Assembly (NCBI GenBank): GCA_038884755.1
Contig: JAWABJ010000001.1
Coordinates: forward strand, 224,001-288,000
Direction: 5' to 3'
Length of the DNA: 64,000 bases
Origin: Candidatus Norongarragalinales archaeon
GTDB taxonomy: Archaea > Micrarchaeota > Micrarchaeia > Norongarragalinales > Norongarragalinaceae
In this document: positions 12,607 through 61,248 of the stretch, in pieces
Position numbering within the stretch: position 1 is the stretch's first letter
Layout of the letters: each line of letters begins with the position of its first letter
The notes under the pieces: generated by a model
The model's database searches: none
The model's input: only the letters and a program-made list of their open reading frames with translations
What the model was told of the DNA's origin: nothing
Made by a program: the position numbers and the translations under genes

Positions 12607-13203
12607 TCACCTTTTTGGGCTTGCAGAAACGAGCTGCAGGGTTATCGCGTCGGTGGGAATCGCTTTGCTCTTGTCGAAACCCAGTTTTTTGAAGAGTATT
12701 TCCAGGGTTTTTTCCTGCGCCTCTCGCGCTCGGTCGATTTTGGTTTCCGGAAGCGCGAATTCGATCATGCTCCCGAAATTCTTTACGTCCAAAACCTTGA
12801 TGCGCACTATGCCGAAGGTGAAGTTCCACTCTTGCGCTTCTCGCGCTAGGACTTCCCGGTATCCCAGTTTTTCCAGCTGTTCGGCCATGGAATAGCTGCT
12901 TTGAACCTCGAAGCCGAGCCTGTCCTCCTCCTGGAGCATGTACCCGTCGAACGAAAGGGTTTCTTTCTGCGTGAGCTTTTCAGTCCGCACGATGAAATAC
13001 GCGAATACCCCGTTTCCGTATTCCTTCGCGTGGATTATGTCGAAATACTCGCCGCCGTTGGCGAAAACGGCCTTGTTTTTCTTGAGCTCGTAAACAGTTT
13101 TTTCGGCGTCTTTGACCGGAAAAACCATGCGCACTTCAGGAAGCTTCCACTTTAGCTCGTGCATCTTCCGTTTTTTGGGAAACAGGAAATCGAAGAATCC
13201 CAT
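12607..13203 (-). CDS. CYTH/class IV adenylate cyclase-like protein (divergent)
   Basis: EVRMVF, LEKLGYREV, LDVKNFGSMIEF, LFKKLGF pattern of the CYTH tunnel fold; catalytic residues degenerate. Confidence 0.55.
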   Translation of the reverse strand: MGFFDFLFPKKRKMHELKWKLPEVRMVFPVKDAEKTVYELKKNKAVFANGGEYFDIIHAKEYGNGVFAYFIVRTEKLTQKETLSFDGYMLQEEDRLGFEVQSSYSMAEQLEKLGYREVLAREAQEWNFTFGIVRIKVLDVKNFGSMIEFALPETKIDRAREAQEKTLEILFKKLGFDKSKAIPTDAITLQLVSASPKR

Positions 13204-13212
13204 GCTTTTCGT

Positions 13213-16200
13213 TCACTCTTCTTGCTTGTTTCTCAAGAAGAAAGCCGCGAGTGCTATTAAGACTAACGCTCCGCCTGCGCCCAGCAGCAGGGCGTTGTAG
13301 TTTTCCTTCCCCCTGTTTTTTTCCGTAGAGTCGAAGATGGAGTTAAGCCTTTTCGCGGCAAACCACGCGGTGAACGCTTTTCCGTTTTCTTCGTCTTCCT
13401 TTGCTTGGTTCAGCGCCGAGAGGGTTTCGTCGGTTCCGAACTGCCTTTGCTTGAGTTCGGCGTTGGAAACCTCTTCCCGCGCTTTTTGTTTTTGTTGTGC
13501 GGTTGCTTCCTCCAAAACCTCGAGTTTCGCTTGCACTCGTTCGGCCAAGGCTTGCAGGCGGGACTGTGTTTCGGCTTTTTCCACGGCTTTCAAGAGCTTT
13601 TCGATTTCCGACTTCGCCTTCTTGCCTTCCTGATGCAAGACGTTTTTCTGGAGTTCTTTCGCGTTTTCCTCGCTTGGGGAAAACGCGGTTTCGAACTCGC
13701 TGAATGCAGAAAGCGCCTTGTCCCGCAAAACGCCGAATTCTTCGAACTCTTCACTCAGCCTCCGCCTCTCCTCGTTTTTTTCTGAGGCGGCTATTGCCGC
13801 TTTTTCCAGCTCTTCAGCCGCTTTCTGCAAGTCCCCAAGCAAAAGGAATTTTTTCGCTTGCTCAACGCACTCTCTGCAGCTTTTCTCCAGCCTCTCGATT
13901 TCAGCGCCGATTCTTTCCTCTTCTCCGACGTCAATGTTTTTTTGCAGCGCGCTTTCTTCCAGGCTTCGAAAGCCGGGTTGCGGGGCAATGCAGCCAAGCA
14001 CGACCACGGTTTTTTTCGTTTCGAAAAGCCCGAGTTTTTCCCCGGTTATTTCAACTGCAAGAATCCCGTCCAAGACTTTTACTTTTGCTTTCAGGCTGCC
14101 GGAAACCGAAACCCCGCCGTCGCATGCTTCGAAAGCGATTTCCTCGTTGAAATTTTCCAAGGCAACGTGCTTGCTTTCGACCGAGATTTCGATTTCGGTC
14201 AAGTTGCCGGCGAGTCTGAAGTTTTCCTCGATTCGGACGGGGTGTGGAACGGCGTATTCAATTTCAAGCGCGTTTTCCCCTTTTTTCGCTTGCGCGAGAA
14301 TCCTTATTTGCGATAAATTCCCGTTCGTGAAAAAAACCGCGTTTGCGCCGCTTGCGCGCGCGAATTCGATTGGAAACTGTTTTTCCAAAACCAATAGCGT
14401 TTCGGTGTCGCGAGTAGCAGTGAAGAGGATTTTTTCCTCGACAAGCGCTTCGAGCGAATTGGAGTGCACTGTTTTCGCCTGCGTTTTTGCTATTTCCACG
14501 ATTTTTTCCAGGGTTTCGTACTCCAGGAAGTATTCCGCGTTTTCCTCCGTTTTTTCCAGGAAAACGTTTTTTGCAATTGACATTTCCGGGCTTTTCCGCA
14601 GGACGACCGCCCCGCCGGGGATTTCAAAGTCAAGCTTGATTTGCCTTTCGGTTGACAGCGGCAATAGGTTTTTCATGGTTATTGAATGGCGGACCCGCGT
14701 TTTCTCCCCTGCTACGGGCAGTTCGGCGTCACGCCCTACCTTCGCTTGCTCTTGCAAGTGTTTCTTGAGGATTTCGGGAGTTTTCGCTTCCGCGAGCGAA
14801 AGCAGGTCGTATAACCGGAATTCAATTCCCGCGAGCCTTCCGGCGGCTTTCTCGAAGTCGATTTTCCCGAAGGGAAACATGCTTTTGATTTCCAAAAGCC
14901 TCGAGTGCGCGCCTTCGCCCAAGTGCGGGGCGATTGAAGAAATTTTTTCGTAATTCCCGTCGATTGCGGAATAGCGTTCGTAGAGTTTCGCCAAAACCTT
15001 TTCCTTCAGCCCGTCTAATTGCGCTTCCAAAAAAATTCCTTGTTCTCCGCCGGCGTTTTCCATGGAGAGCTCGATTTCCTTGAGTTTTTCCCCTTCGGCT
15101 TCGAACACGGCGTCCTTCTTTGCGCGCGAAACGAGTTCCTTAAGCTCTTCCAGCTTGGTTTGGAGGGTAAATTTGAACGCCTGGCTTGCGGGGGTTTCGG
15201 AAAGGATTTCCTGCGCCTTCTTGAGTTGGGTTATTGCGGAAACGTAGTACAAAATCCTTTCCCCTCGGGTGGAAATGCGCTGGGAGTCAAGGGTTTCGTG
15301 CAAAAGCTCACGGGCTTTTGCGGCTGAAAACGAATTCGCCCGTTCCATCATGCTTTCGGCAAGCGTTTTTTCCTGCAGGACTTTTTGCTTCAGCGTTTTT
15401 TCAAGGCTTTCGCTCCTTTCCGCCGCGTTTTCGAAGAGCCTCTGCTCTTCCTTCAGGCGCGTGTTGGCTTCGGCGAGCTTTTCTATCGCCCTGCTGGCGT
15501 AGCCTTCCTGCTTTCCGTTCCAGTCCGCCCGCGCCTGCTGGCTTTTTTCTGTCGCCATCCTGTCGCTCTCTACCGCCTTCTCGAAATCGCTTTCGAAAGA
15601 CTCGAGTGAGTTTTCGCTGCTCACGCTTTCCGCTTCCCCTACGAGGTGAAAGGCGTTTTCCCCTATTTCCCTGATTTTCTCTCCTTCCAGAAAATCCCGC
15701 TGCAGCTTTACCTTGATTTTCAGAAGCTGGTTTTCCTCGTCGAGCCTCTGGTATTCCCTTTCAAGAAGGAAAACCGCTTGCAAAACCCTGTCGTCCAAAG
15801 CGATTTCCTTTCCCCACAGCCCTTCCCTTCCCACGAGCGCTTCAACTCCCTTCACCATTTCCCCCGAAGAAAGTGTTTGGTTGACGAGTGGGATGGTTTT
15901 GGAAAACTCGCTTCCGAACCCTTTGCCTAGGGGATTCCGTTCTTCAATGTTTTTCTTCGCTTCGCCCAGTTCCGAGACGACTCCGCCTGCAAAACCTTGG
16001 AAGCCCGGGCCTATCATGAGCTCGAGTTTTGCAGCGTCGGAGTCTATGATGCTGAGGCCTTCCCGAGCGGCTTCGCTCGCTTCCCTCAACGCCTTTTGCC
16101 CGTAAAGAAAACAGTAAGTGGAATGGTGTCGGTATGCCGCGAGCGTGGCTTTGTTCAAGAATTTCGGCTGCAGCGCCGCGTGCGCTTTTGCCTTTTGCAA

Positions 16201-16425
16201 GTCGCGCGAAGCTTGCGCCGCTTTGGCAAAGGCGAAGTCGCTGCGCGCGTTTTCCGCCAACGCCGTTTTCGCGGCCAGAAAGCCGGCGCAGCTTTTTGGG
16301 TAGAGCGAGTAGTAAGAGAAGGAAAGGTTTTTCGGCTCTAGGAGAAAGCCGTATTCGGAAAGCGCCCAAGCGGGGAGCGCGTTGAGCAGGATAAGCAGCG
16401 AAGCAACGGCGAGCTTTCGAAGCAC
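13213..16425 (-). CDS. Large exported coiled-coil protein with C-terminal membrane anchor
   Basis: N-terminal signal peptide (LAVASLLILLNALPAWA), helical-beta-helical organisation, C-terminal TM (ALLLGAGGALVLIALAAFFL). Confidence 0.75.
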   Translation of the reverse strand: MLRKLAVASLLILLNALPAWALSEYGFLLEPKNLSFSYYSLYPKSCAGFLAAKTALAENARSDFAFAKAAQASRDLQKAKAHAALQPKFLNKATLAAYRHHSTYCFLYGQKALREASEAAREGLSIIDSDAAKLELMIGPGFQGFAGGVVSELGEAKKNIEERNPLGKGFGSEFSKTIPLVNQTLSSGEMVKGVEALVGREGLWGKEIALDDRVLQAVFLLEREYQRLDEENQLLKIKVKLQRDFLEGEKIREIGENAFHLVGEAESVSSENSLESFESDFEKAVESDRMATEKSQQARADWNGKQEGYASRAIEKLAEANTRLKEEQRLFENAAERSESLEKTLKQKVLQEKTLAESMMERANSFSAAKARELLHETLDSQRISTRGERILYYVSAITQLKKAQEILSETPASQAFKFTLQTKLEELKELVSRAKKDAVFEAEGEKLKEIELSMENAGGEQGIFLEAQLDGLKEKVLAKLYERYSAIDGNYEKISSIAPHLGEGAHSRLLEIKSMFPFGKIDFEKAAGRLAGIEFRLYDLLSLAEAKTPEILKKHLQEQAKVGRDAELPVAGEKTRVRHSITMKNLLPLSTERQIKLDFEIPGGAVVLRKSPEMSIAKNVFLEKTEENAEYFLEYETLEKIVEIAKTQAKTVHSNSLEALVEEKILFTATRDTETLLVLEKQFPIEFARASGANAVFFTNGNLSQIRILAQAKKGENALEIEYAVPHPVRIEENFRLAGNLTEIEISVESKHVALENFNEEIAFEACDGGVSVSGSLKAKVKVLDGILAVEITGEKLGLFETKKTVVVLGCIAPQPGFRSLEESALQKNIDVGEEERIGAEIERLEKSCRECVEQAKKFLLLGDLQKAAEELEKAAIAASEKNEERRRLSEEFEEFGVLRDKALSAFSEFETAFSPSEENAKELQKNVLHQEGKKAKSEIEKLLKAVEKAETQSRLQALAERVQAKLEVLEEATAQQKQKAREEVSNAELKQRQFGTDETLSALNQAKEDEENGKAFTAWFAAKRLNSIFDSTEKNRGKENYNALLLGAGGALVLIALAAFFLRNKQEE

Positions 16426-20038: not shown

Positions 20039-20752
20039 ATGCCTGTAGTTTGGAAGGAAAGACACATTCTAACACCCAAAGGCTGGGCTCGCGTGGTGCA
20101 CTTGCAAGGCCACGATCCGGAAGAGATTTTCAAGCTCGTTCAAACGAGGGGAGACCGGCTTTCCGGCCATCCTCCCGTGACCTTGTACCGGCATGGAACA
20201 ACAAGCTTGGTTTTTAGGCCTCGAACCGAGGATTTCAACCCTTCTAAACAATTCAAGGTCTTGCAGCGCATGGTGGAAAAAAGGCAAGCGAGCGTGGAAA
20301 TGCCTTTCGCCTTGGTGGAACATCCTGACCACTATGGGCTTCTTTCTTACGCGAAAAAAGGCGTGTCGAAACGCTCGATGCTCGCCAACGTGATTAACGA
20401 TAATGCCTTGTCTATGCAAGAACGATGGAGCATGGCTAAAGCCGGAATGCGGCGGCTTGCCGAAATTCATGCTGTAGGCTTCAACCACGGTCATCCTTAC
20501 GGAAACCTCATGGTTGACGCAAACAACCGCGTCAAGTTTATAGACTCAAGTCTCGTGAGTGAATTTGATTCAACCTTGGCTGAAGGGGAACTTGAGGGTT
20601 TGGCGTCCGCGCTTACGGAGCGCTTGTGGGTTGCAAGGCCTTGGGAAGAGAGAATAAAATTAAACCATAAAGTGGAAATGTTTCGAATACAAAAGAGGCT
20701 GCTTGAAGAGTACAACCGAACTTTAGAAAAACGGTCGAAGAAAAAACTTTGA
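20039..20752 (+). CDS. Divergent protein-kinase-like (Bud32/Kdo/RIO-like) protein
   Basis: LAEIHAVGFNHGHPYGNLMV...VKFID; HGH replaces HGD. Confidence 0.65.
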   Translation: MPVVWKERHILTPKGWARVVHLQGHDPEEIFKLVQTRGDRLSGHPPVTLYRHGTTSLVFRPRTEDFNPSKQFKVLQRMVEKRQASVEMPFALVEHPDHYGLLSYAKKGVSKRSMLANVINDNALSMQERWSMAKAGMRRLAEIHAVGFNHGHPYGNLMVDANNRVKFIDSSLVSEFDSTLAEGELEGLASALTERLWVARPWEERIKLNHKVEMFRIQKRLLEEYNRTLEKRSKKKL

Positions 20753-22769: not shown

Positions 22770-23057
22770 TCACTTCAAGGAAGGCGGAATTATTTCCGGC
22801 CTCTCCTTCGTCAACAGAAAATAGTAAGACGAAAACTTCAGCCTGTACTCGACGGCGAGCTTAATCCACTTGAACAACGTTTGCTGGCGCTTGCCCGTGA
22901 AAATGATGTATAAAAGTTGAATCACCCAGCAGATTGCTCCTATCAGGCTCAAAATCCAAAGCACTATGACGAGCGGAATCCAGTATACCAAGCGTACGAG
23001 CAATTCTTTCCTGCTGGCTTTAGCGTCGTATTTGACGTCGAAATTCAAAGTCTTCAT
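22770..23057 (-). CDS. DUF4389-like small membrane protein
   Basis: SRKELLVRL..IP..IVLWIL..IIFTGKR...LLTKERP. Confidence 0.75.
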   Translation of the reverse strand: MKTLNFDVKYDAKASRKELLVRLVYWIPLVIVLWILSLIGAICWVIQLLYIIFTGKRQQTLFKWIKLAVEYRLKFSSYYFLLTKERPEIIPPSLK

Positions 23058-23105
23058 TTTCTCCCCACCTTTCCCTTTTTTCTAACCATTTTTACCCGCG
23101 CGGGC

Positions 23106-23552
23106 TTAAAGAGTTTTTTGCTTGCCTCTAATTTTCTCCGCCAGGGAGTCCAAGTCTTTTTGCGAAGGCTCCTTCCGCAATTCCGTTTCCCTCACGCCGA
23201 CGTGCTTGAACAAATTATCCCAGCTCTTTCGCGGCAGCAAATGGAAATGTACGTGCTGCTTGGAAAGCTTGGTTTCGGGAACGAAAGGCCTGTAATGCTG
23301 GCGCAAGTCCACCCCGTCGCACGGCAAGTTTTTCAAAAGCATTTTTTCTATCGCTACGACCAGGTCGAAAATCGAGTGCAGTTCATCCTTGTTGAAATCC
23401 CACAACGCCTTGTGGTGGGCTTTGGGGATTACCAGCGTATGCCCTTCGACTATCGGAAAAGCGTCGAGAATCGCCATCGCATGCTTGTTTTCCCCGAGCT
23501 TTGCGCTGTGCGCTTTTCCTTCAACGATAGTGCAGAAAACACAGTCCATCAA
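23106..23552 (-). CDS. HIT family hydrolase
   Basis: DCVFC, LDAFPIVEGHTLVIPKAH, HVHFHLLPR. Confidence 0.93.
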   Translation of the reverse strand: MMDCVFCTIVEGKAHSAKLGENKHAMAILDAFPIVEGHTLVIPKAHHKALWDFNKDELHSIFDLVVAIEKMLLKNLPCDGVDLRQHYRPFVPETKLSKQHVHFHLLPRKSWDNLFKHVGVRETELRKEPSQKDLDSLAEKIRGKQKTL

Positions 23553-23632
23553 AACGCCTTTTTTCTTTAACTTAATTTTTCTTTCTTTCGTTAACGTTTC
23601 TTTCTTTTTCGCAAAAAAGAAAGAAAGGTTAG

Positions 23633-26755: not shown

Positions 26756-27385
26756 CTATTTGAATTGTTCGAGAGCCAGTTTCAACCTTCCTTCGTGAAA
26801 CTGTAGTTTGGGTTCGACTATTACTCCGTGCGTTTCCGCAAGTTCGTCGATAAAGTTCATGTCTTCTTCTGCATGGGTCATTATTTCCAGGTATTGCAAG
26901 TAACGCATTCGTTCAGTTTCCCAAACTCCCTTTATTTGCTCTTCGTTTCTTTTACTGCGCTTAGCCAGTTCTTCTTTCTTTTCCTCGGGGATTAAATTAT
27001 TTTTTAATTCCTCTGCTTGTTTCTTTAATTCCTCTCGAAATGTGGCGGGAAGCAAAGAGTCCATCCTGACGGAATGAAAATCGTTTCGGTATAATATTCC
27101 CCTCCTGTTTATTGGCATTCCTGCAAGATTGGCTTCGACTTTAATCCTGTCGTGCCTTTCCCGGCCGATTTTGTCGTCGAATTCCTGTATTTTTTTGATG
27201 TGTTCTTCTTTAATGCCGCTTTTTTGCAAACTGCGTTTTAGTGCTTGCTCTTTAATCTCATGAATGTTGAACAAAATCGAGTTTTTCTTGAGTTCGGCGT
27301 TTGCCAGAGTTTTAAAGCCGTGATTTCTGGACTTGTTTTCCAGCTCCCTGCAAAAACTTTGCCAAGTCATTTTCTTGCCTTTCAC
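26756..27385 (-). CDS. Orphan charged helical protein, AT-rich gene
   Basis: 209-aa ORF filling the gap between tatD and eif5a; visibly more A/T-rich than neighbours. Confidence 0.6.
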   Translation of the reverse strand: MKGKKMTWQSFCRELENKSRNHGFKTLANAELKKNSILFNIHEIKEQALKRSLQKSGIKEEHIKKIQEFDDKIGRERHDRIKVEANLAGMPINRRGILYRNDFHSVRMDSLLPATFREELKKQAEELKNNLIPEEKKEELAKRSKRNEEQIKGVWETERMRYLQYLEIMTHAEEDMNFIDELAETHGVIVEPKLQFHEGRLKLALEQFK

Positions 27386-30211: not shown

Positions 30212-31192
30212 TTGAAAGGGCTTTTGGTTGTCGTCTTCGCCGCGCTGCTTGCGACCGGTTGCTTGAGCGAATCGCCCGCGCCTTCTTCCTCTGCAACGCC
30301 GACGAGCGTGGTGGTTCAAGAGCCTTCCCCTCTTCCTTCCCTTTTACCTTCCCCGACCGTAGTGGTGGAAATCCCCACTCCTTCGCCCGAGCCGTTGAAT
30401 TACTCCAAAGAAGAGGTTGTTTCGGAATACTTGAAGGCGGTAAACGCCCAGGATTTCGAGAAGGCTTACTCTCTCGTTTCCCGCGACTTCAAGGGCGAAG
30501 ATCCCGACGCAGCCACCCTCGCGGCTTTCAAGGCCAGGATGGAGAAGGATTACCCGTTCGGGCTTTCGTTTTCCGGCGTCGCGGTTGTGGTGAACAACCC
30601 GCGCGAGGTCGCGGCGAACATCGTGAAAGGCGGAAGCACGACTTCGAGAACGCTGGGGTTCATCCTTTCTTTCGAAAGCGGATTTTGGAAACTGCGGGTT
30701 CCCTTCCCAACTCCCGGAAAGTATTATAACGCAAAGGCTTCGGTCCGCCTGAACCCGGTTGAAATGAGCAGGAATTTAGAGCTGGCGCTGAACGACTTTT
30801 TCTCGAGGCTCGATTCGAGAGTCAAGAACGACCCGTTTACGATAAGCGAGTACGACAAGGGCAACCACGTTTTCTACTCTTCGAAAACCGTGCGCTTGAA
30901 GAGGACCGACGGGCTGCAGAGGGACATGGAAATCGAAGTGACTTTCGGCCCGTCTTTCCTCATAGGCGGCCTGGCGACTACCGCGAAGTTGCTTGAAGAC
31001 CGGCTATTGTACTTCCAATACCAAGACGGGATAAAACGCCAGGGCGGTCACGCGGGCTTTTACTGCTACGCTTCTTCGGTTAACTACTTCCTGAAAGTCA
31101 AGATGGACAGCAACTTCGCGGAATTCTATTCTTATGAGGAAAACATTTTCGCGCCCGTGATGAACGAGCTGAACAAAATCTGCCCGCCTTGA
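30212..31192 (+). CDS. Putative lipoprotein with Pro/Ser/Thr linker and NTF2-like domain
   Basis: Lipobox LATGC; SPLPSLLPSPT linker; EEVVSEYLKAV..DFEKAYSLVS..ESGFWKL. Confidence 0.7.
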   Translation: MKGLLVVVFAALLATGCLSESPAPSSSATPTSVVVQEPSPLPSLLPSPTVVVEIPTPSPEPLNYSKEEVVSEYLKAVNAQDFEKAYSLVSRDFKGEDPDAATLAAFKARMEKDYPFGLSFSGVAVVVNNPREVAANIVKGGSTTSRTLGFILSFESGFWKLRVPFPTPGKYYNAKASVRLNPVEMSRNLELALNDFFSRLDSRVKNDPFTISEYDKGNHVFYSSKTVRLKRTDGLQRDMEIEVTFGPSFLIGGLATTAKLLEDRLLYFQYQDGIKRQGGHAGFYCYASSVNYFLKVKMDSNFAEFYSYEENIFAPVMNELNKICPP

Positions 31193-48143: not shown

Positions 48144-48205
48144 AATAGGATTTGTGCAAAGCGCTTTTATTAAGATTGAGTTCAATTGTTTTTATAGCTG
48201 GTTTA

Positions 48206-49753
48206 ATGGAAGAAGCTGCTGTTTCGAAAAGGTTTTCACAGAAGTTCGGCGCGCAAATTAGCTTTGCTAGAACGCTTTATGCCGGCCTCAAAGGAGAAAA
48301 GAATTTTGATTTCAACCTTGCCCTTGCGAATTACTTGCATTCCCACCAAGCGGACGATCAGCTTGTTTTAAGCGCTTTACTAGCCGGTCTGAGTAAAAAA
48401 GAGCTGGAGGAAATCAAAAAAAAAGGTGTGGCCAAGCACGTGTTGGAGCAGCACGAGAAAGAATGGGGTTTGGACAGGAAAGCAGTTAAAGATTTCAGTG
48501 AAAACTTGAAAGAGGCTTTAGAGATTATTGCAAGCTATATACAGTTGAAAGCAAATCCGGAAATGGATGCAAACGCGCATTTTGCAGCCGCGCTTGAAGC
48601 CCCCAAGCTACGCGCTTCGTTGTTGCGCGCTGCGGTATTGAACTTCGAACTGGAAAAACCATCAAAACAATCTGCTTTGCACGTGGAAGTGGCTGAACAC
48701 GTTTACATTCCGTGGTTGAACCTCTTGGGTTTGGTTGACATGAGCAACGAACTCGGAGAAAAAGTTTTGAAAATCAAAGACCCTTTAGCATACGAAAAAC
48801 TCTTTCAACACTTGGAAACAATGCCTGTCAGTAAACGTCCGTTCGGCAAAATGATTGCCTCCTTGAAAAAGAAAATCAGTAGGCTGGGGTTGGAGATTGA
48901 AGACGTTCAGTTCAGGAGAAAATCGATTTACAGCATTTACCAAAAACTCAAGGCTTACGGCTGTCCCGTTGGAAATCCAGCCTACGACCACGACCCTCGA
49001 CTTTTAGACGATTTGTATGGGTTGAGGGTTGTTTTGAAGGCTGACGAGACTGAAAGCGAAAGCGAACAAGTTGCAAAGGCAAGACGAGTGTTGGATGTAG
49101 TACGCTCTTCATTCGAAATGCCTAAGGAGGCAAGGATAGACGAGTATGTCGCTGAAAAAGCAAAACCAAGCGGCTATAAGGCTATTCACACGCCGGTTAT
49201 TGGACCGCAGAATTTGCCGATAGAAATTCAAACAGTAACCAAACCATGGCACGCTGCGAACGAAGCTGGTCTTTCTTCCCATTTTTTCTACAAACTTTCT
49301 AAAGCTGTTAGCAGTCCTTTGAGGCAGGTGTTGGTTCGCATTCAAGAAGAGTTGAAGCGGGGCGTGCCGATAGAACGAGTTTTCAGGAGCATAGGCAAGC
49401 CGTTGATTTACGTGACAACCGACCGGTTTGGTCCGCAAGACCACGCTCTTCCTGCAGGTTCTACTCCCTTGGACTTGTGGTACGCGCATGGTTTCCGCAA
49501 GAAGTACGAAGAAAAAATGAAGGGAAAAATATTTTTCGAAACCGTAATGGTAAACGGTGAAACCGTTCCACTAACTACTATCCTGAAGCCAGGCGATCAC
49601 GTGCGTTTTGACGTGAGCGGAAGCCCGCCGAAAGTAGAGCTTATTGACCGGTTTGCGAACGAAGTAGCAACGCCTGAAGCGAGGGAAGGGTTGTGGAAGT
49701 TGAGGAGAAAACTGGGAAAATGGCGTTGGCTCAGGCGAAAGGAAGAGAGCTAA
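48206..49753 (+). CDS. RelA/SpoT homolog: degenerate HD, (p)ppGpp synthetase and TGS domains
   Basis: RRKSIYSIYQK, DDLYGLRVV, KPSGYKAIHT, IEIQ, EAGLSSHFFYK; TGS LPAGSTPLD..VNGETVPL..LKPGDHV. Confidence 0.85.
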   Translation: MEEAAVSKRFSQKFGAQISFARTLYAGLKGEKNFDFNLALANYLHSHQADDQLVLSALLAGLSKKELEEIKKKGVAKHVLEQHEKEWGLDRKAVKDFSENLKEALEIIASYIQLKANPEMDANAHFAAALEAPKLRASLLRAAVLNFELEKPSKQSALHVEVAEHVYIPWLNLLGLVDMSNELGEKVLKIKDPLAYEKLFQHLETMPVSKRPFGKMIASLKKKISRLGLEIEDVQFRRKSIYSIYQKLKAYGCPVGNPAYDHDPRLLDDLYGLRVVLKADETESESEQVAKARRVLDVVRSSFEMPKEARIDEYVAEKAKPSGYKAIHTPVIGPQNLPIEIQTVTKPWHAANEAGLSSHFFYKLSKAVSSPLRQVLVRIQEELKRGVPIERVFRSIGKPLIYVTTDRFGPQDHALPAGSTPLDLWYAHGFRKKYEEKMKGKIFFETVMVNGETVPLTTILKPGDHVRFDVSGSPPKVELIDRFANEVATPEAREGLWKLRRKLGKWRWLRRKEES

Positions 49754-54315: not shown

Positions 54316-55644
54316 ATGCGCCGCATTCGCCTTGCGCGGGATTTGGGTTTTTGGGATTCCGTGCTTTTGGGCATAGGCTTTATAGTAGGCTCGGGAATTT
54401 TCATAATGCCCGTAGTCGCGGCGCAGACTGCAGGCTCTTGGTCTATTTTCGCTTGGTTTGCCGCGGGATTGTACACCATACTTACTGGATTGTGCTTCGC
54501 GGAGTTGGCGGTGCGCAGTCCAAAAGCAGGCGGGTTGTACGCGTATGCTCACGATGTTTTCGGGGATTTCCTCGGCTTTTTCACCGGCTACTCGTTTTGG
54601 TTGGGGTATTGGATTACTATTGCAGTGGAAATGCTCGCGTTGGCGTGGTATTTGAGTTTTTTCACGGGCCTTTCGTTCGAACTGCGCCTTGCTATTGCCG
54701 TTTTCATCGGGTTCGTTTTCACGCTAATAAACTACAAGGGCGTGAGGCTGGGAAGCAGCACTGAAGACGTTCTTACCGTAGGAAAACTCGTTCCACTGGG
54801 AATTCTTGTAGTCGCTGGCTTGGCTTCGTTCAACCCCAGCGTTTTTTCCGCAGGCTTCGCAGCCGTGAATGCTGGACACATCGCTTTAGCATTCCTTTCT
54901 TCGTTCATTCTCGTGCTGTGGGCTTTTCAAGGAGTGGAAATAATAACCGTTCCGCAAGAGGAAATCAAGAACGCCAAGAAAACCGTGCCTAAAGCCATAA
55001 TCGTTTCAGTCTTGAGCGTAATGGCTTTGTACCTGCTCATTGCGCTTGTCGTGCTGGGCAGCGTGGACTGGAAGAATTTCGCCGCTTCGGAATCAGCGTT
55101 GGCCGACATAAGCGAAGTTTTGATAGGAGGTTGGGGCGGGGCGCTTTTGGCAATAGGCGGCTTGGTTTCGATCCTCGGTGCTTTGAATGCGGTAATCCTC
55201 GCTTCCGCACGCATAAGCTTTGCAATGGCTCGAGACGGGCTTTTCCCGAGGCTTTTCGAGCACTTGCACGGCAGGCATGCGACGCCCGACTACGCCTTGA
55301 TTTTGCAGTTTGTTTTCGCTGCTTTGCTCGTGTGGTTGTACCGTGACTTCATTTTCTTGGCTTCGCTTGCGGTGTTCTTCACGCTCATACCTTGGTTTTT
55401 GAGCTGCCTGGCTGCGTGGAGAGTGCAATTGCGGGAGCACAAGCACAGCATTCTCAACCACGTCGCTGTCCCGACTCTCGCGACGGTTTTCACTGCCCTT
55501 CTCATAGTATACCTGCTTCCACAATACTGGCCGTTCGCCTTGCTGAGCGGAATCCTTGGTTTGGCTTACTTTTCAGTCAAAAAACGAGAGCACAGAACGC
55601 GCTTTCACGTGCGGGGGGAGGAAAGCAAAACGCTCAAGCCCTAA
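54316..55644 (+). CDS. APC-family amino acid permease
   Basis: IVGSGIF, FAELAVRSPKAGGLY, AFQGVE..EEIKN, ARISFAMARDG; ~12 TMs. Confidence 0.92.
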   Translation: MRRIRLARDLGFWDSVLLGIGFIVGSGIFIMPVVAAQTAGSWSIFAWFAAGLYTILTGLCFAELAVRSPKAGGLYAYAHDVFGDFLGFFTGYSFWLGYWITIAVEMLALAWYLSFFTGLSFELRLAIAVFIGFVFTLINYKGVRLGSSTEDVLTVGKLVPLGILVVAGLASFNPSVFSAGFAAVNAGHIALAFLSSFILVLWAFQGVEIITVPQEEIKNAKKTVPKAIIVSVLSVMALYLLIALVVLGSVDWKNFAASESALADISEVLIGGWGGALLAIGGLVSILGALNAVILASARISFAMARDGLFPRLFEHLHGRHATPDYALILQFVFAALLVWLYRDFIFLASLAVFFTLIPWFLSCLAAWRVQLREHKHSILNHVAVPTLATVFTALLIVYLLPQYWPFALLSGILGLAYFSVKKREHRTRFHVRGEESKTLKP

Positions 55645-56560
55645 ACCGCAAAGGAAATTTTGAAGCGTGAAAGCCGATTTTTTCCCAAACCCTTTCCGGT
55701 GTCAAAGCCTTTAGTTCTTGAACGAGGCTTTCATCTTCCAAGTCTTTGTAGCCCAAAGGCACGTCCACGCCGTCTATGCGCTTTCCGTCTTTCGAAACGT
55801 GCAGCGAGAACGGCGCACGGCATAGTTTTCCAGAAGGCGTTTGTGAAGGGTCGAGCACGAGCATTCGGTTTTTTTTCTCGTGCCCTCCGCTAACTTTGAA
55901 CGAAACTTGCTTTTGCACTTCGGCCGCCCATTTGCCTGTGAACGTAGAGAGAGGATTTTTCTCTGAATACTGCACTGTCTTCGCATAATCGCTTGCCGGC
56001 ATTTGCTTTTGCAAAAGCAAGAAAACGTGGAACGAACTTCCAGTCCAGCAAACCAGCAAATCGTGTTTTAGTGGAAAGTCTTTGTCGTCTTGAATTGCGT
56101 TCACGAAATGCAATGCTGCTTGTTGCGCCTGTTCTTGCGTAATCCCCTCGCCCCTGTCTAAATCAAAGAAAATTCGTTCGATGGGCTTGCCTGGGTTCTC
56201 GTTGTTCGTGGCGTAAAGCAATTCGCTTAGCTTTCGCGGAACGAAATAACGCCACGCGAGTTCTTGTTTTTTCGAAAGCCAGCCGGTTTTTCTGACGTCC
56301 GCCAAATGCCCTTTGCGCAATTCGAGAAGCTCGGAGGTTATAACGCTTTCGTCGGCCAGGTTTTCAACCCACAGCGGCGGCAGTTCGCTGCCGCGCTTGA
56401 GCAAAGGGCGGTATGACGGAATCCAGTTTTTGGCCGCGAGTTCTTTTCCCTTCAAAAACTTGCGGAGTTTGCGGGCGACGAGCGAATAGTAAAGCAATAC
56501 GTCCAAATCGCCGTAAGGCTCTAGAAGGCTTTTCGAAGCGAGCTTTTCAAGCTTGTTCAC
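55634..56560 (-). CDS. Stand-alone archaeo-eukaryotic primase/polymerase (LigD PolDom-like)
   Basis: IFFDLD (motif I), TGSSFHV (motif II), LDPSQ..RAPFSLH (motif III), VPL. Confidence 0.7.
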   Translation of the reverse strand: MNKLEKLASKSLLEPYGDLDVLLYYSLVARKLRKFLKGKELAAKNWIPSYRPLLKRGSELPPLWVENLADESVITSELLELRKGHLADVRKTGWLSKKQELAWRYFVPRKLSELLYATNNENPGKPIERIFFDLDRGEGITQEQAQQAALHFVNAIQDDKDFPLKHDLLVCWTGSSFHVFLLLQKQMPASDYAKTVQYSEKNPLSTFTGKWAAEVQKQVSFKVSGGHEKKNRMLVLDPSQTPSGKLCRAPFSLHVSKDGKRIDGVDVPLGYKDLEDESLVQELKALTPERVWEKIGFHASKFPLRFRA

Positions 56561-58558: not shown

Positions 58559-58665
58559 TCTAAACCACCCCAAGAATTCCCCCGCATAGCGTGAGAAAAG
58601 AACAATATATAATTGCATTTCGTCTTTTAAACTTGATATTCGAGTTTGAATCAGGGTGAAATAAA

Positions 58666-59517
58666 GTGAATTTTGCCGACCAGCTTATAAAAACCGTTGA
58701 AAAAAAGAATTCGCGCGTTTGCGTCGGGCTCGATCCTGTTTTCGAAGTCTTGCCCTCGCAATTTCGCTCTTTCCCGGACAAAGGCAAGGCCGTTTTCGAA
58801 TTCAACAAGCGCATCATACACGAAGTGAAGGGGCATTGCGTTTGCGTCAAGCCTAACCTAGCGTTCTATCTTGCGTTGGGCGAAGGCGGGTGGACTGCGT
58901 TGAAAAAAACGGTCGATTGCGCGAAAAGCGAAGGGCTTCTCGTAGTCTTGGACGCTAAGGCGAACGACATAGGAAATACGGCGCAGGCTTACGCCGACGC
59001 TTTTTTCGACGGACTCAATGCCGACGCGGTTACGATAAACCCGTTTTTGGGGAGCGACGCTTTGTTGCCTTTCTTAAAGGATTGCGGGAGGGACAAGGGC
59101 GTTTTCGTTTTGGTCAAGACTTCCAACGATTCTTCAAGCGAATTCCAGGGTTTGAAAGTGAGCGAGAGGAAAACTTTGAGTGAAGAAATCGCACGAAAGG
59201 TTGTCGAGTGGGAGGAGTACGGTTTGGGAAGCGAAGGGTACTCGAGCATAGGCGCTGTCGTGGGCGCGACTTTTCCCGAGCAGGCGAAGAAACTGCGCAG
59301 GATAATGAAAAAACAGTTTTTTCTCGTTCCCGGCTACGGCGCGCAAGGCGCGAGCGCGAAAAGCGTCAAAAACTTTTTCGACGACGAAGGTCTGGGGGCG
59401 ATAGTGAATTCTTCCCGTGGTATAATCTACGCTTCGGGGGGAAGTGATTTCGCGGAAGCAGCGGACAAAGCCGCCGAGAAAATGAAGAACGAGATTAACG
59501 AGGCTTTGGGCGTTTAA
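58666..59517 (+). CDS. pyrF: Orotidine 5'-phosphate decarboxylase
   Basis: VGLDP, KPNLAFY, DAKANDIGNT, GAVVGAT, LVPGYGAQG, NSSRGI. Confidence 0.95.
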   Translation: MNFADQLIKTVEKKNSRVCVGLDPVFEVLPSQFRSFPDKGKAVFEFNKRIIHEVKGHCVCVKPNLAFYLALGEGGWTALKKTVDCAKSEGLLVVLDAKANDIGNTAQAYADAFFDGLNADAVTINPFLGSDALLPFLKDCGRDKGVFVLVKTSNDSSSEFQGLKVSERKTLSEEIARKVVEWEEYGLGSEGYSSIGAVVGATFPEQAKKLRRIMKKQFFLVPGYGAQGASAKSVKNFFDDEGLGAIVNSSRGIIYASGGSDFAEAADKAAEKMKNEINEALGV

Positions 59518-59522
59518 GCAAC

Positions 59523-60518
59523 GTGGTTTTTTTGAAGGAAATAGGCGATTTGCAGCATCCAGTCAAAGCTTGGACTGCTTTAACCAGGGTTATAGCACAC
59601 TTGGGGGAAATTCCACAAGAGGATTACTTGCGTAGAAACTATCCCGTCTTGGCTGAAGCGGTTGATTACCACGGCGGTTTGCATTCTTTGGTCGAAGCAA
59701 ACAAGCAAGATCTTTCAATTCTTTTGCAAAACGCCTCCGAGCGGCACGAAACTTCCTTGTTGCATTGGAGTCGTGCGATGGACGGTAACGAGCACGCGCG
59801 GGAAAAGTTAGTTGGTCTTTACAAGCGGCAGGCGGAAAGACTGGCATCAAAGCTTTATTCTCACAAGCTCCGAGGGACTTGGAAGGATTGGGTTAGAGTG
59901 GACGTTGAAGACTTGGTTCAAGAAGGGCTAGTTTCCCTTGTGCAAGCCCTTCCCCGATACGATCCTTCAAAATCCAAGTTTCCTAAGTTTGCCCACTTGG
60001 TGATGGAGGGCGCTATGAAGCACTACTTGCGCGATAAAGCGCAAGTAATCCGCAAGCCGGCATGGGTTCAAGAGCTTAGGTCTAAAATGTCCAAGGCTTT
60101 CTTCGACTACCAGTCTAGGCACGGCATGAAGCCTACTTTTGAGCAACTGGCAAAACAAGCGAACGTTCCCGTGGAGCACGTGATAGAAGCTTTCACTCAC
60201 TACCAGCCCGTTTCCTTGCAAGCGGCTTTAGATTTTGAAGGCACGGGAAAGGAAGGACGGTTTTTTCAGGAGCCGGCGGCCCGGGACGAGTTGGAGCCGC
60301 TTGCTTTGAAAATGATTTTCTACAAGGCTTTGCGTGACCACGTGAAACTGTCGAAAATGCAGGCTGTGGCGTTAGGCATGTCTGCAGATGGGCATTCTCT
60401 CGAGGAGATTGCAACGCACTTAGGAGTTTCACCCGACTCTGCAGGGCAGTTGGTTTACCAGGCGAAAAAGAAAATAAGGGAAAACCTGCTGTTCAAGCGC
60501 GAGCTTGGTATAAACTGA
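59523..60518 (+). CDS. Sigma-70 family (SigB/SigF/FliA-like) RNA polymerase sigma factor homolog
   Basis: Region 2 EDLVQEGLVSLVQALPRYDPSKSKF..MKHYLRD; IRKP; region 3 GMKPTFEQLA..PVSL; region 4 SLEEIATHLGVS..QAKKKIR. Confidence 0.85.
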   Translation: MVFLKEIGDLQHPVKAWTALTRVIAHLGEIPQEDYLRRNYPVLAEAVDYHGGLHSLVEANKQDLSILLQNASERHETSLLHWSRAMDGNEHAREKLVGLYKRQAERLASKLYSHKLRGTWKDWVRVDVEDLVQEGLVSLVQALPRYDPSKSKFPKFAHLVMEGAMKHYLRDKAQVIRKPAWVQELRSKMSKAFFDYQSRHGMKPTFEQLAKQANVPVEHVIEAFTHYQPVSLQAALDFEGTGKEGRFFQEPAARDELEPLALKMIFYKALRDHVKLSKMQAVALGMSADGHSLEEIATHLGVSPDSAGQLVYQAKKKIRENLLFKRELGIN

Positions 60519-60570: not shown

Positions 60571-61248
60571 TTAAGCTTGTTTTGACTTTCTTTGCTTGTC
60601 TTCCTCTTCCTGCTTTCGCGAAAGCCTGCGTTTCGTAACTTTCAACGCAAAACGCAGTTCCGCCTCCAGAAGCGCGAGGTATTGAGAAATGTCTTTTATC
60701 GTTTGCTTTATGTCCGGCTGGATGTTGAACTCCAGCGCGTTGACTCGGCGGTTGGTTTTTTCGATTTCCTTCAACAAACGCTTCAAAGCCGCTTCGGTCT
60801 GCGCGAGTTTTATCGCGTATTCAAGCGAAAGCTCGAAGTCGGAAACGGCTTCGTCGAACTTGGCGCTCGAGCCCACTATGGGGTAGCCCCTTTGTTCCAA
60901 GCTCCTGTGCACGTACTCACCTTCTATCGCCGGAATCCTGACTCCCATGATGTTTTTGGTGTAAACGCTGATTTGAGGCGCGCGTTCCGACGCCAATGCC
61001 GCAGTCTGCAAAAACACGGTTCCATGAAAGGCTTCGGCGACGGCAAGACTCTTGTATGACTTTAAAACTTGGTTGTCCAACTGCGTGCGCAAGTCTTGCG
61101 CTTTCTTTATGATGGCGAAAAACTCGAGCACTAGCGCATCGCGCTTTTGCTTGAGAATCGTGTGCCCTTTCTGGGCCAGCGCGAGCTTTTGCTTTGTGTT
61201 AAGCAATTCCATTCGCGTCGGCTTGATGCCTTCCTTCATTTTTTTCAC
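60571..61248 (-). CDS. atpD: A/V-type ATP synthase subunit D
   Basis: KPTRMELL..LAQKGH.LKQKRDAL, EIEKTNRRVNALEF. Confidence 0.95.
   Translation of the reverse strand: MKKMKEGIKPTRMELLNTKQKLALAQKGHTILKQKRDALVLEFFAIIKKAQDLRTQLDNQVLKSYKSLAVAEAFHGTVFLQTAALASERAPQISVYTKNIMGVRIPAIEGEYVHRSLEQRGYPIVGSSAKFDEAVSDFELSLEYAIKLAQTEAALKRLLKEIEKTNRRVNALEFNIQPDIKQTIKDISQYLALLEAELRFALKVTKRRLSRKQEEEDKQRKSKQA

Follow-up and report, generated by a model that had tools for sequence, protein, structure and literature searches.

The open reading frame at positions 59523-60518 of the window, the whole stretch of 64,000 nucleotides that was analysed, is a sigma-70-family gene of SigB/F type which lies in an archaeal chromosome and is under purifying selection. 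Archaea start transcription with TBP and TFB, and the question is therefore raised of what role selected sigma genes play in DPANN cells. A conventional sigma role is unlikely because there is no compatible core enzyme and TBP/TFB are retained in the genus. We tentatively favour the explanation that the protein is an accessory, polymerase-independent DNA-binding regulator, derived from a captured bacterial sigma factor of SigB/F type.

Sigma genes as such are known in DPANN archaea, and what is new is this remodelled SigB-derived variant of an unexplained phenomenon. Castelle et al. 2021 (PMC8204110, partial text) described a sigma-70 family, fam00359, in DPANN genomes, with mis-binning ruled out and no anti-sigmas; it is present in 15% of 13 Micrarchaeota genomes and in 38% of Pacearchaeota, 39% of Woesearchaeota and 38% of Aenigmarchaeota genomes, and its mechanism and function are left open in that text. 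The gene studied here resembles fam00359 as described there: it is a sigma-70 gene of bacterial type, it lies in the chromosome of a DPANN archaeon that has archaeal basal factors, and no anti-sigma accompanies it. That description, in which the partial text holds no subfamily, fusion or residue analysis, is extended here by a SigB/F ancestry, a module like HNH_repeat, a -35 helix that has been neutralised and a locus whose content is swappable. In addition, TIGR02937 passes its cut-off in 23 of 68 genomes of the order, a count that may include mis-binned contigs, and the surprise voiced in an earlier, sequence-only reading of this DNA was thus overstated. Many of the order's sigmas have long and varied N-terminal extensions; some, among them L014 and L015 on short contigs, resemble the usual ECF sigmas of bacteria. 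Our literature search for sigma in DPANN, Micrarchaeota or Woesearchaeota, which left subscription papers and bioRxiv supplements largely uncovered, found only PMC8204110, and the word "sigma" is absent from the main text and one supplement file of PMC12892359.

A SigB/F-type sigma-70 protein

The protein matches Pfam Sigma70_r2 with 47.4 bits (cut-off 24) and TIGR02937 with 73.1 bits (cut-off 42.9). The sigma-70 identity proposed from sequence alone is confirmed by these two models, and its SigB/SigF likeness is supported by the best subfamily model, TIGR02980 (SigB/F/G; 76.2 bits, far below its cut-off of 234.35), and by the placement in group 3 described below; the concern that sigma models might find nothing is thereby removed. 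Regions 3 and 4, which had been recognised together with region 2, were found at their expected positions, each under its own cut-off (Sigma70_r3, 20.4 bits; Sigma70_r4_2, 23.3 bits; Sigma70_r4, 17.8 bits). Among the orthologs, r3 passes in P0006 and P0091, and r4 or r4_2 in P0003, P0005 and P0091; these passes, the collinear alignment and the predicted helices show that regions 2, 3 and 4 are present in order. The best sequence match with a solved structure is chain 8x6g_H, titled S. aureus SigB (E 2e-11), whose alignment spans residues 87-320. The AlphaFold model has a mean pLDDT of 72, with low values in the linker 225-273, and a fold search with this model, which gave 133 matches at E <= 0.001, placed SigB-type chains at the top. 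In the comparison with sequence models, the defence-system sigma MzaA also matched below its cut-off (42 of 800 bits).

Table 1. Features of the sigma gene and its locus (window positions)
Feature	Positions	Strand	Remarks
TATA-like box CTTTTAAAC	58624..58634	+	about 35 nt before pyrF; identical in 3/3 aligned loci
pyrF (OMP decarboxylase, TIGR02127)	58666..59517	+	upstream neighbour, probable operon head
sigma-70-family gene (P0002)	59523..60518	+	331 aa, GTG start, intact ORF; repeat and SigB/F-derived part
HNH_repeat-like module	59550..59696	+	residues ~10-58; single copy of a helical repeat of ~60 aa (G-x-x-P...L...A...HGG)
sigma region 2	59787..60038	+	residues 89-172; Pfam Sigma70_r2
sigma region 3	60039..60200	+	residues 173-226; W181 and E184 (= H455, E458) invariant
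sigma region 4 helix-turn-helix	60309..60479	+	residues 263-319; recognition helix SPDSAGQLVYQ, then KKKIR
atpD	60571..61248	-	final gene of the A-type ATPase operon; convergent, bounds the slot on its right

Ancestry was examined in a mixture-model tree of 46 rows, for which the database rows were chosen for their similarity to the query; 12 partial archaeal ORFs had already been removed because of gaps, and six long archaeal rows and one near-duplicate were omitted. We observed that the SigB-like family forms a 100/100 clade on a long stem (1.09 changes per site), inside a 95/88 clade with 13 database SigB/F-like proteins and within group 3 at 99/92. Six of those 13 proteins were scanned and all have TIGR02980 as best model. 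Other sigmas bearing the N-terminal repeat fall with FliA or outside group 3, and in the tree the repeat stands on three separate sigma lineages in Micrarchaeota; a single origin of the repeat-bearing sigmas was not recovered in the trees, and the AU test does not reject it (52-row tree, p 0.069).

Like the bacterial group 3 factors SigB, SigF and SigG (TIGR02980; S. aureus SigB, 8x6g_H), the protein has collinear regions 2-4 and the EDLVQxG and HYLRD motifs, and it has neither region 1.1 nor the melting tryptophans. Unlike these factors, it scores far under the subfamily cut-off (76 vs 234), stands on a long stem, carries an extra N-terminal repeat, has T429 and the basic -35 helix replaced, and belongs to a genome without bacterial core or RsbW. 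The loss of W433/W434 and R436 was considered as a sign of decay and rejected, as group-3 relatives are without these residues too.

The locus between pyrF and atpD

The window lies on a 714-kb contig (C1) of a genome (G000), probably of the micrarchaeal order Norongarragalinales, which has 927 kb in 9 contigs and is 93% complete and 0.3% contaminated, and the neighbours of the sigma gene in it include archaeal-type MCM, proteasome, FttA and A-type ATPase genes. Only 5 nt separate the pyrF stop from the start of the sigma gene, whose stop is followed tail-to-tail by atpD after 52 nt; the intact frame, its placement between these two genes and the short gap are as first described. A GGTG motif precedes the pyrF start, and the TATA-like box is probably the archaeal promoter of a pyrF-sigma transcript, judging from its position and conservation. 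The GTG start codon of the sigma gene is aligned with GTG in 4 ortholog loci. A scan for sigma-70-type promoters and terminators gave no excess over shuffles, and RNA run X3, which covers neither the sigma gene nor the organism, is uninformative on expression either way. Just inside the start of the sigma gene lies a run of seven T (59527-59533), shorter in the orthologs; it is speculation that it could attenuate read-through from pyrF.

The earlier remark that no mobile-element genes lie nearby agrees with our Pfam scan, in which no transposase or integrase was matched among 40 window proteins. These were 34 plus 6 proteins, the 34 being two that start near 52 kb and 32 ORFs drawn from the 66 ORFs of at least 170 aa, with overlapping opposite-frame ORFs omitted.

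Purifying selection in a swappable slot

Full-length relatives were found at 54-68% (four) and 46-47% (one) identity, far above all other matches; the best bacterial-type matches reach 25-45% over parts of the protein only. The gene order pyrF, sigma, Nudix, atpD recurs in two loci (L060 and L061), and in genome G001 one contig carries pyrF and then the sigma gene start and another a sigma gene facing atpD. By family profile, ortholog-level matches occur in 2 of 401 genomes of the class, the window genome and G001; a metagenome scan gave 7 loci, 2 of them orthologs and 5 weak region-2 matches that were left out.

By the Nei-Gojobori method, dN/dS between the window gene and three orthologs is 0.155-0.189, with synonymous sites near saturation, and 0.23-0.24 for closer ortholog pairs. 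Intact frames at 46-68% identity and dN/dS of 0.16-0.24, well under 1, bear out the suggestion of the sequence-only reading that the intact ORF reflects selection, and neutral evolution does not fit. In run X1 the read depth is 4.0-4.2 over the sigma gene and 4.2-4.9 over the adjacent flanks, a comparison which is not independent because X1 may be the source sample; none of the contigs listed for X1 bridges the pyrF junction. Contamination, for which near-identity to a bacterial gene and discordant coverage had been named as signs, was rejected: the bacterial-type matches are distant and partial, the depth is concordant, the contig is archaeal, dN/dS is low, and the same pyrF-atpD site is occupied in separate assemblies.

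The gene might also be a decaying relic or an assembly artefact. Indeed, sigma is absent from the slot in G003 and G004, the dN/dS of the sigma gene is above that of pyrF (0.11-0.17) and atpD (about 0.05), and its GC3 is 0.55 vs 0.62 and 0.64 for these two genes. However, the intact frames, the dN/dS values, the same neighbours in separate assemblies and the even depth have largely refuted this reading, to which we leave a very slim chance.

The pyrF-atpD site is a variable, swappable slot. In the congener G003 it is empty and pyrF abuts atpD; in the congener G004 it holds a 298-aa ORF and a Nudix gene and no sigma; on a second G001 contig it holds a divergent repeat-sigma, L008 (27% identity, hhalign 95%), then a Nudix fragment. 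Neither flank of the slot was found in G002. L008 has lost the D403/Q406 motif and kept a basic region-4 helix. Between L003 and L060, dS is 0.17 for the sigma gene and 0.57 for atpD on the same contigs, which suggests that the cargo is exchanged among close relatives by recombination. The two H+-PPase-pyrF loci of G001 (L090 and L091, on C22 and C36) have PyrF proteins only 65% identical and are each followed by a different repeat-sigma, which may reflect a mixed bin or a duplication. The stretch L061:1-300 looks chimeric by eye, a glutamate-dehydrogenase-like fragment being joined to the 3' half of pyrF.

An N-terminal repeat resembling HNH_repeat

The sequence-only reading had noted a non-sigma N-terminal extension of about 75 aa. 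Its non-sigma nature stands, the sigma part beginning near residue 80-87; we refine the description in that residues ~10-58 are a copy of a recurrent repeat and not an orphan sequence. With a repeat HMM built from 15 fragments of three other genomes only (G026, G027 and G030), residues 17-55 were the top match among all ORFs of the window genome (E 1.6e-4). Five family members score 22-36 bits against this HMM, with a shuffle maximum of 8.9; none of the shuffles (500 per sequence, 418-473 scored) reaches the real score. Sigmas of G026, G027 and G030, which belong to three other families, and of G084, from another order, carry one to eight copies. In a search with a six-repeat region, 11 proteins were found among the top 8000 candidates scored, namely the query, a second repeat-sigma, a multi-HTH protein and others without sigma domains.

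The repeat module is modelled with a pLDDT of 86. Of the ten structural neighbours retrieved from the Atlas for residues 5-80, five are clusters of PF18780 (TM 0.56-0.63); none of them reaches the naming bar. These neighbours of the repeat occur mostly together with HNH nucleases. The best PDB fold match of the module (Z 6.1, rmsd 2.7, 64 aligned) is not significant for a helical bundle, and no viral model matched at E 0.001. Much as in the HNH_repeat (PF18780) proteins, the module is small and helical and closes with a GG turn, and a G026 protein that has homologous copies in tandem exceeds the PF18780 cut-off (45.6 vs 26 bits). Unlike them, the copy here is below PF18780 (no match at E 0.1, and 0 PF18780 matches in the window genome), single and charge-neutral, and its fusion partner is a sigma and not an HNH nuclease. 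DNA binding by the repeat may be inferred from the company that it keeps; the net charge of the repeat in the SigB-like family is -2 to +2, so the copy is not basic. In the one paper found for the family, PF18780 appears only in a modelling table, as far as the partial text of PMC8078820 goes.

Other repeat-bearing genes were observed along the way. In G026 (C54) an eight-repeat sigma gene (L057:4338-6032), broken by one in-frame TAA after region 2.1, sits directly behind a one-repeat sigma gene (L007:1480-2118). L048 and L026 (from G063 and G061) are sigmas with a different tandem N-terminal repeat, which the first repeat HMM missed.

The host transcription machinery

The window genome has a single Sigma70_r2 match, one archaeal Rpo1N (the only Rpb1_1 ORF) and TFB; neither a bacterial alpha-CTD nor an RsbW-type anti-sigma kinase was found in this 93% complete genome. 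The Rpo1N clamp is 38% identical to E. coli beta' over 115 aa. It has I, L and H at the positions of beta' R275, E295 and A302, where substitutions impair holoenzyme formation (PMC8321222, partial text), and is acidic at R271, K280, R281, R293 and R297. G000, G001 and G002 share a 117-aa clamp stretch at 100% identity, and it is 90-100% identical in all of the 64 genomes of the order (out of 68) with a match. As the clamp is near-invariant with or without a sigma ortholog, we see no co-adaptation.

These data bear on the possibility that the protein is an alternative initiation factor, which would bind the clamp coiled coil of its own Rpo1N and define a new promoter class beside TBP/TFB. The homology of the clamp helices with beta', the retention of regions 2-4 and the fact that TBP was not found in the window genome speak for it. 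However, the docking residues of the clamp differ, with charge reversed, the clamp is unchanged whether or not a sigma ortholog is present, TFB is present, and 61 of the order's 68 genomes have TBP, as do 4 of 4 congeners. The absence of the flap-tip helix, moreover, is common in archaea (PMC8321222, partial text). We consider this possibility improbable.

The genes that flank TBP in G001 have their counterparts at the start of C2, at the end of C1 and on C3 of the window genome; given this and the presence of TBP in all four congeners, an assembly gap is the simplest reading, and TBP most likely lies in it, probably along with the genes beside it. The idea that sigma replaces TBP was rejected on the same evidence. 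One gene at the end of C1 is present on C3 as well. In this order TBP nearly always gives one match of 85 positions, the open frame being ~93-182 aa long, and it appears to be a one-repeat (half-size) protein.

Conserved and replaced residues

We compared 6 distinct family sequences in E. coli numbering. D403, Q406 and E407, which we take to be the core-binding residues of region 2.2 of sigma, are kept along with G408 in the window protein (D130, Q133, E134 and G135). D403, E407 and G408 are invariant (6/6) and Q406 is found in 5/6, the motif being DQEG in five members and DNEG in the sixth, against DQEG in 7 of 29 other archaeal sigmas. D403 and G408 may have a structural role. Region 2.2 overall, with 4 of 18 positions invariant, is no more conserved than the protein average.

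In region 2.3 (7/16 positions invariant), F427 is present in 6/6 and Y430 is replaced by F in 6/6, as in 16 of 129 group-3 relatives. T429, which is T in 110 of these 129 relatives, is kept in one of the six sequences and is K in the window protein. HYLRD in region 2.4 (8/12) is invariant, with the SigB-type residues H441, R444 and D445 in 6/6; position 455 is W and position 458 is E in all six. The repeat has 13 of 49 positions invariant and region 4.2 has 14 of 28. In five of the six sequences, window protein included, the -35 helix is without K/R at 584-593, which is the case in 0 of 202 database relatives (0 of 118 in group 3) and 1 of 22 other archaeal sigmas. A basic run, KKKIR, is conserved after the recognition helix and Tyr at 592 is invariant. 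In E. coli, H455 and E458 are readers of the extended -10 element and R584, E585 and R588 of the -35 element (PMC2613000, partial text). The neutral helix therefore counts against ordinary DNA reading by region 4, but since region 4.2 is among the most conserved parts of the protein, it would have been respecified and not lost.

With DQEG kept and the -35 helix neutral, a mimic that binds another protein, or a decoy for a bacterial polymerase, is also conceivable. A mimic would use the sigma fold as a scaffold for another protein, for example a factor of a virus or mobile element, or be shut off by its own N-terminal module, so that neither DNA nor polymerase would be its main partner; PhyR provides a precedent for such logic. 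A strongly conserved region 4.2 with an uncharged reading helix and an invariant Tyr at 592, a neutral repeat, and a slot whose cargo turns over are in line with this, as is the presence of MzaA among the sub-cut-off matches. However, the MzaA match reflects generic sigma likeness, and no partner gene co-occurs except Nudix, which is absent in the window genome and present without sigma in G004. We hold this explanation to be unlikely, if worth keeping in mind.

The protein could also be an inter-domain effector, which would reach a bacterial host, prey or neighbour, dock on the beta' clamp via region 2.2 and act as a decoy or mis-directing sigma. It would occupy the core and, without T429 and the -35 readers, start poorly or only at sites like the extended -10. 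We know of no delivery route for such an archaeal effector. The docking residues are kept despite an incompatible clamp in the cell itself, the melting residue T429 is replaced in 5/6, the -35 helix is neutralised, and the slot is patchy and exchangeable. In addition, other DPANN carry peptidoglycan hydrolases (PMC9723730 and PMC12352652, partial texts) and phage-encoded sigmas alter host dormancy (bioRxiv 10.1101/2021.11.12.468384, partial text). However, we detected no hydrophobic signal or TM stretch in 6/6 family sequences and no SLT or M23 hydrolase in the window genome (two families searched, 93% complete), and region 2.2 overall is conserved only to the protein average. A cultivated Micrarchaeote, moreover, has a Thermoplasmatales host (PMC8975820, partial text) and the order may be free-living (PMC12892359, partial text). 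We regard the effector reading as rather unlikely. Its most specific form is doubtful in our view, namely that a delivered SigB-derived decoy jams or redirects the polymerase of a bacterial partner, with the repeat as delivery or targeting tag; it rests on an intact core-docking motif in a protein without the melting and -35 residues. If true, the decoy would imply bacterial hosts or prey for Micrarchaeota, and an effector in general would be evidence that they manipulate bacteria.

A proposed stand-alone DNA-binding regulator

The sequence-only reading had offered two functions, a repurposed DNA-binding regulator and a protein acting on a bacterial RNA polymerase; the former fits better and both are putative. 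We favour the regulator because the parts that face DNA in bacterial sigmas, regions 2.4, 4.2 and 2.3, are the best conserved across the six sequences, export signals are absent, and the gene lies in a probable TATA-driven pyrF operon. That the order is proposed to be independent of hosts, and that the sister protein L008 has lost the docking motif, points the same way. Norongarragalinales have been proposed to be less host-dependent or free-living (PMC12892359, partial text). The cell's own clamp without the bacterial sigma-docking residues, the genome without alpha-CTD or RsbW, and a repeat whose structural neighbours mostly accompany HNH nucleases are consistent with the regulator as well. 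Against it stand the repeat copy, which is not basic, the -35 helix discussed above, and the DQEG motif kept in 5/6, which a polymerase-free protein need not keep.

In the mechanism that we propose, the sigma gene would be co-transcribed with pyrF from the archaeal TATA promoter and its product would stay in the cytoplasm. The protein would bind duplex DNA via the conserved helices of regions 2.4/3.0 and the respecified helix-turn-helix of region 4, and, by blocking or aiding the assembly of TBP/TFB, would alter the transcription of a few genes; it would neither melt promoters nor replace TBP/TFB. Such a regulator would show that the sigma fold can be domesticated without its polymerase. The family, being small, soluble and under purifying selection, with the docking motif kept and the -35 helix neutralised, is a clean test case for the role of sigma genes in DPANN cells.

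Other genes of the window

Six ORFs of 198-1070 aa, at 13213-16425 (- strand), 12607-13203, 20039-20752, 22917-23570, 26756-27385 and 30212-31192, have no Pfam match at E 0.001. A 308-aa protein at 55634-56560 (- strand) has a weak match to the LigD primase-polymerase domain (22.3 bits vs a cut-off of 27.4). At 48152-49753 (+ strand) we observed a 533-aa protein with a RelA/SpoT domain (PF04607, 62.8 bits; TIGR00691, 92.9 of 499), in which visual inspection shows the synthetase motifs, a TGS-like tail and a degenerate hydrolase part. The RelA/SpoT domain is over its cut-off in 25 of 68 genomes of the order, where it is thus a second common bacterial regulatory family.
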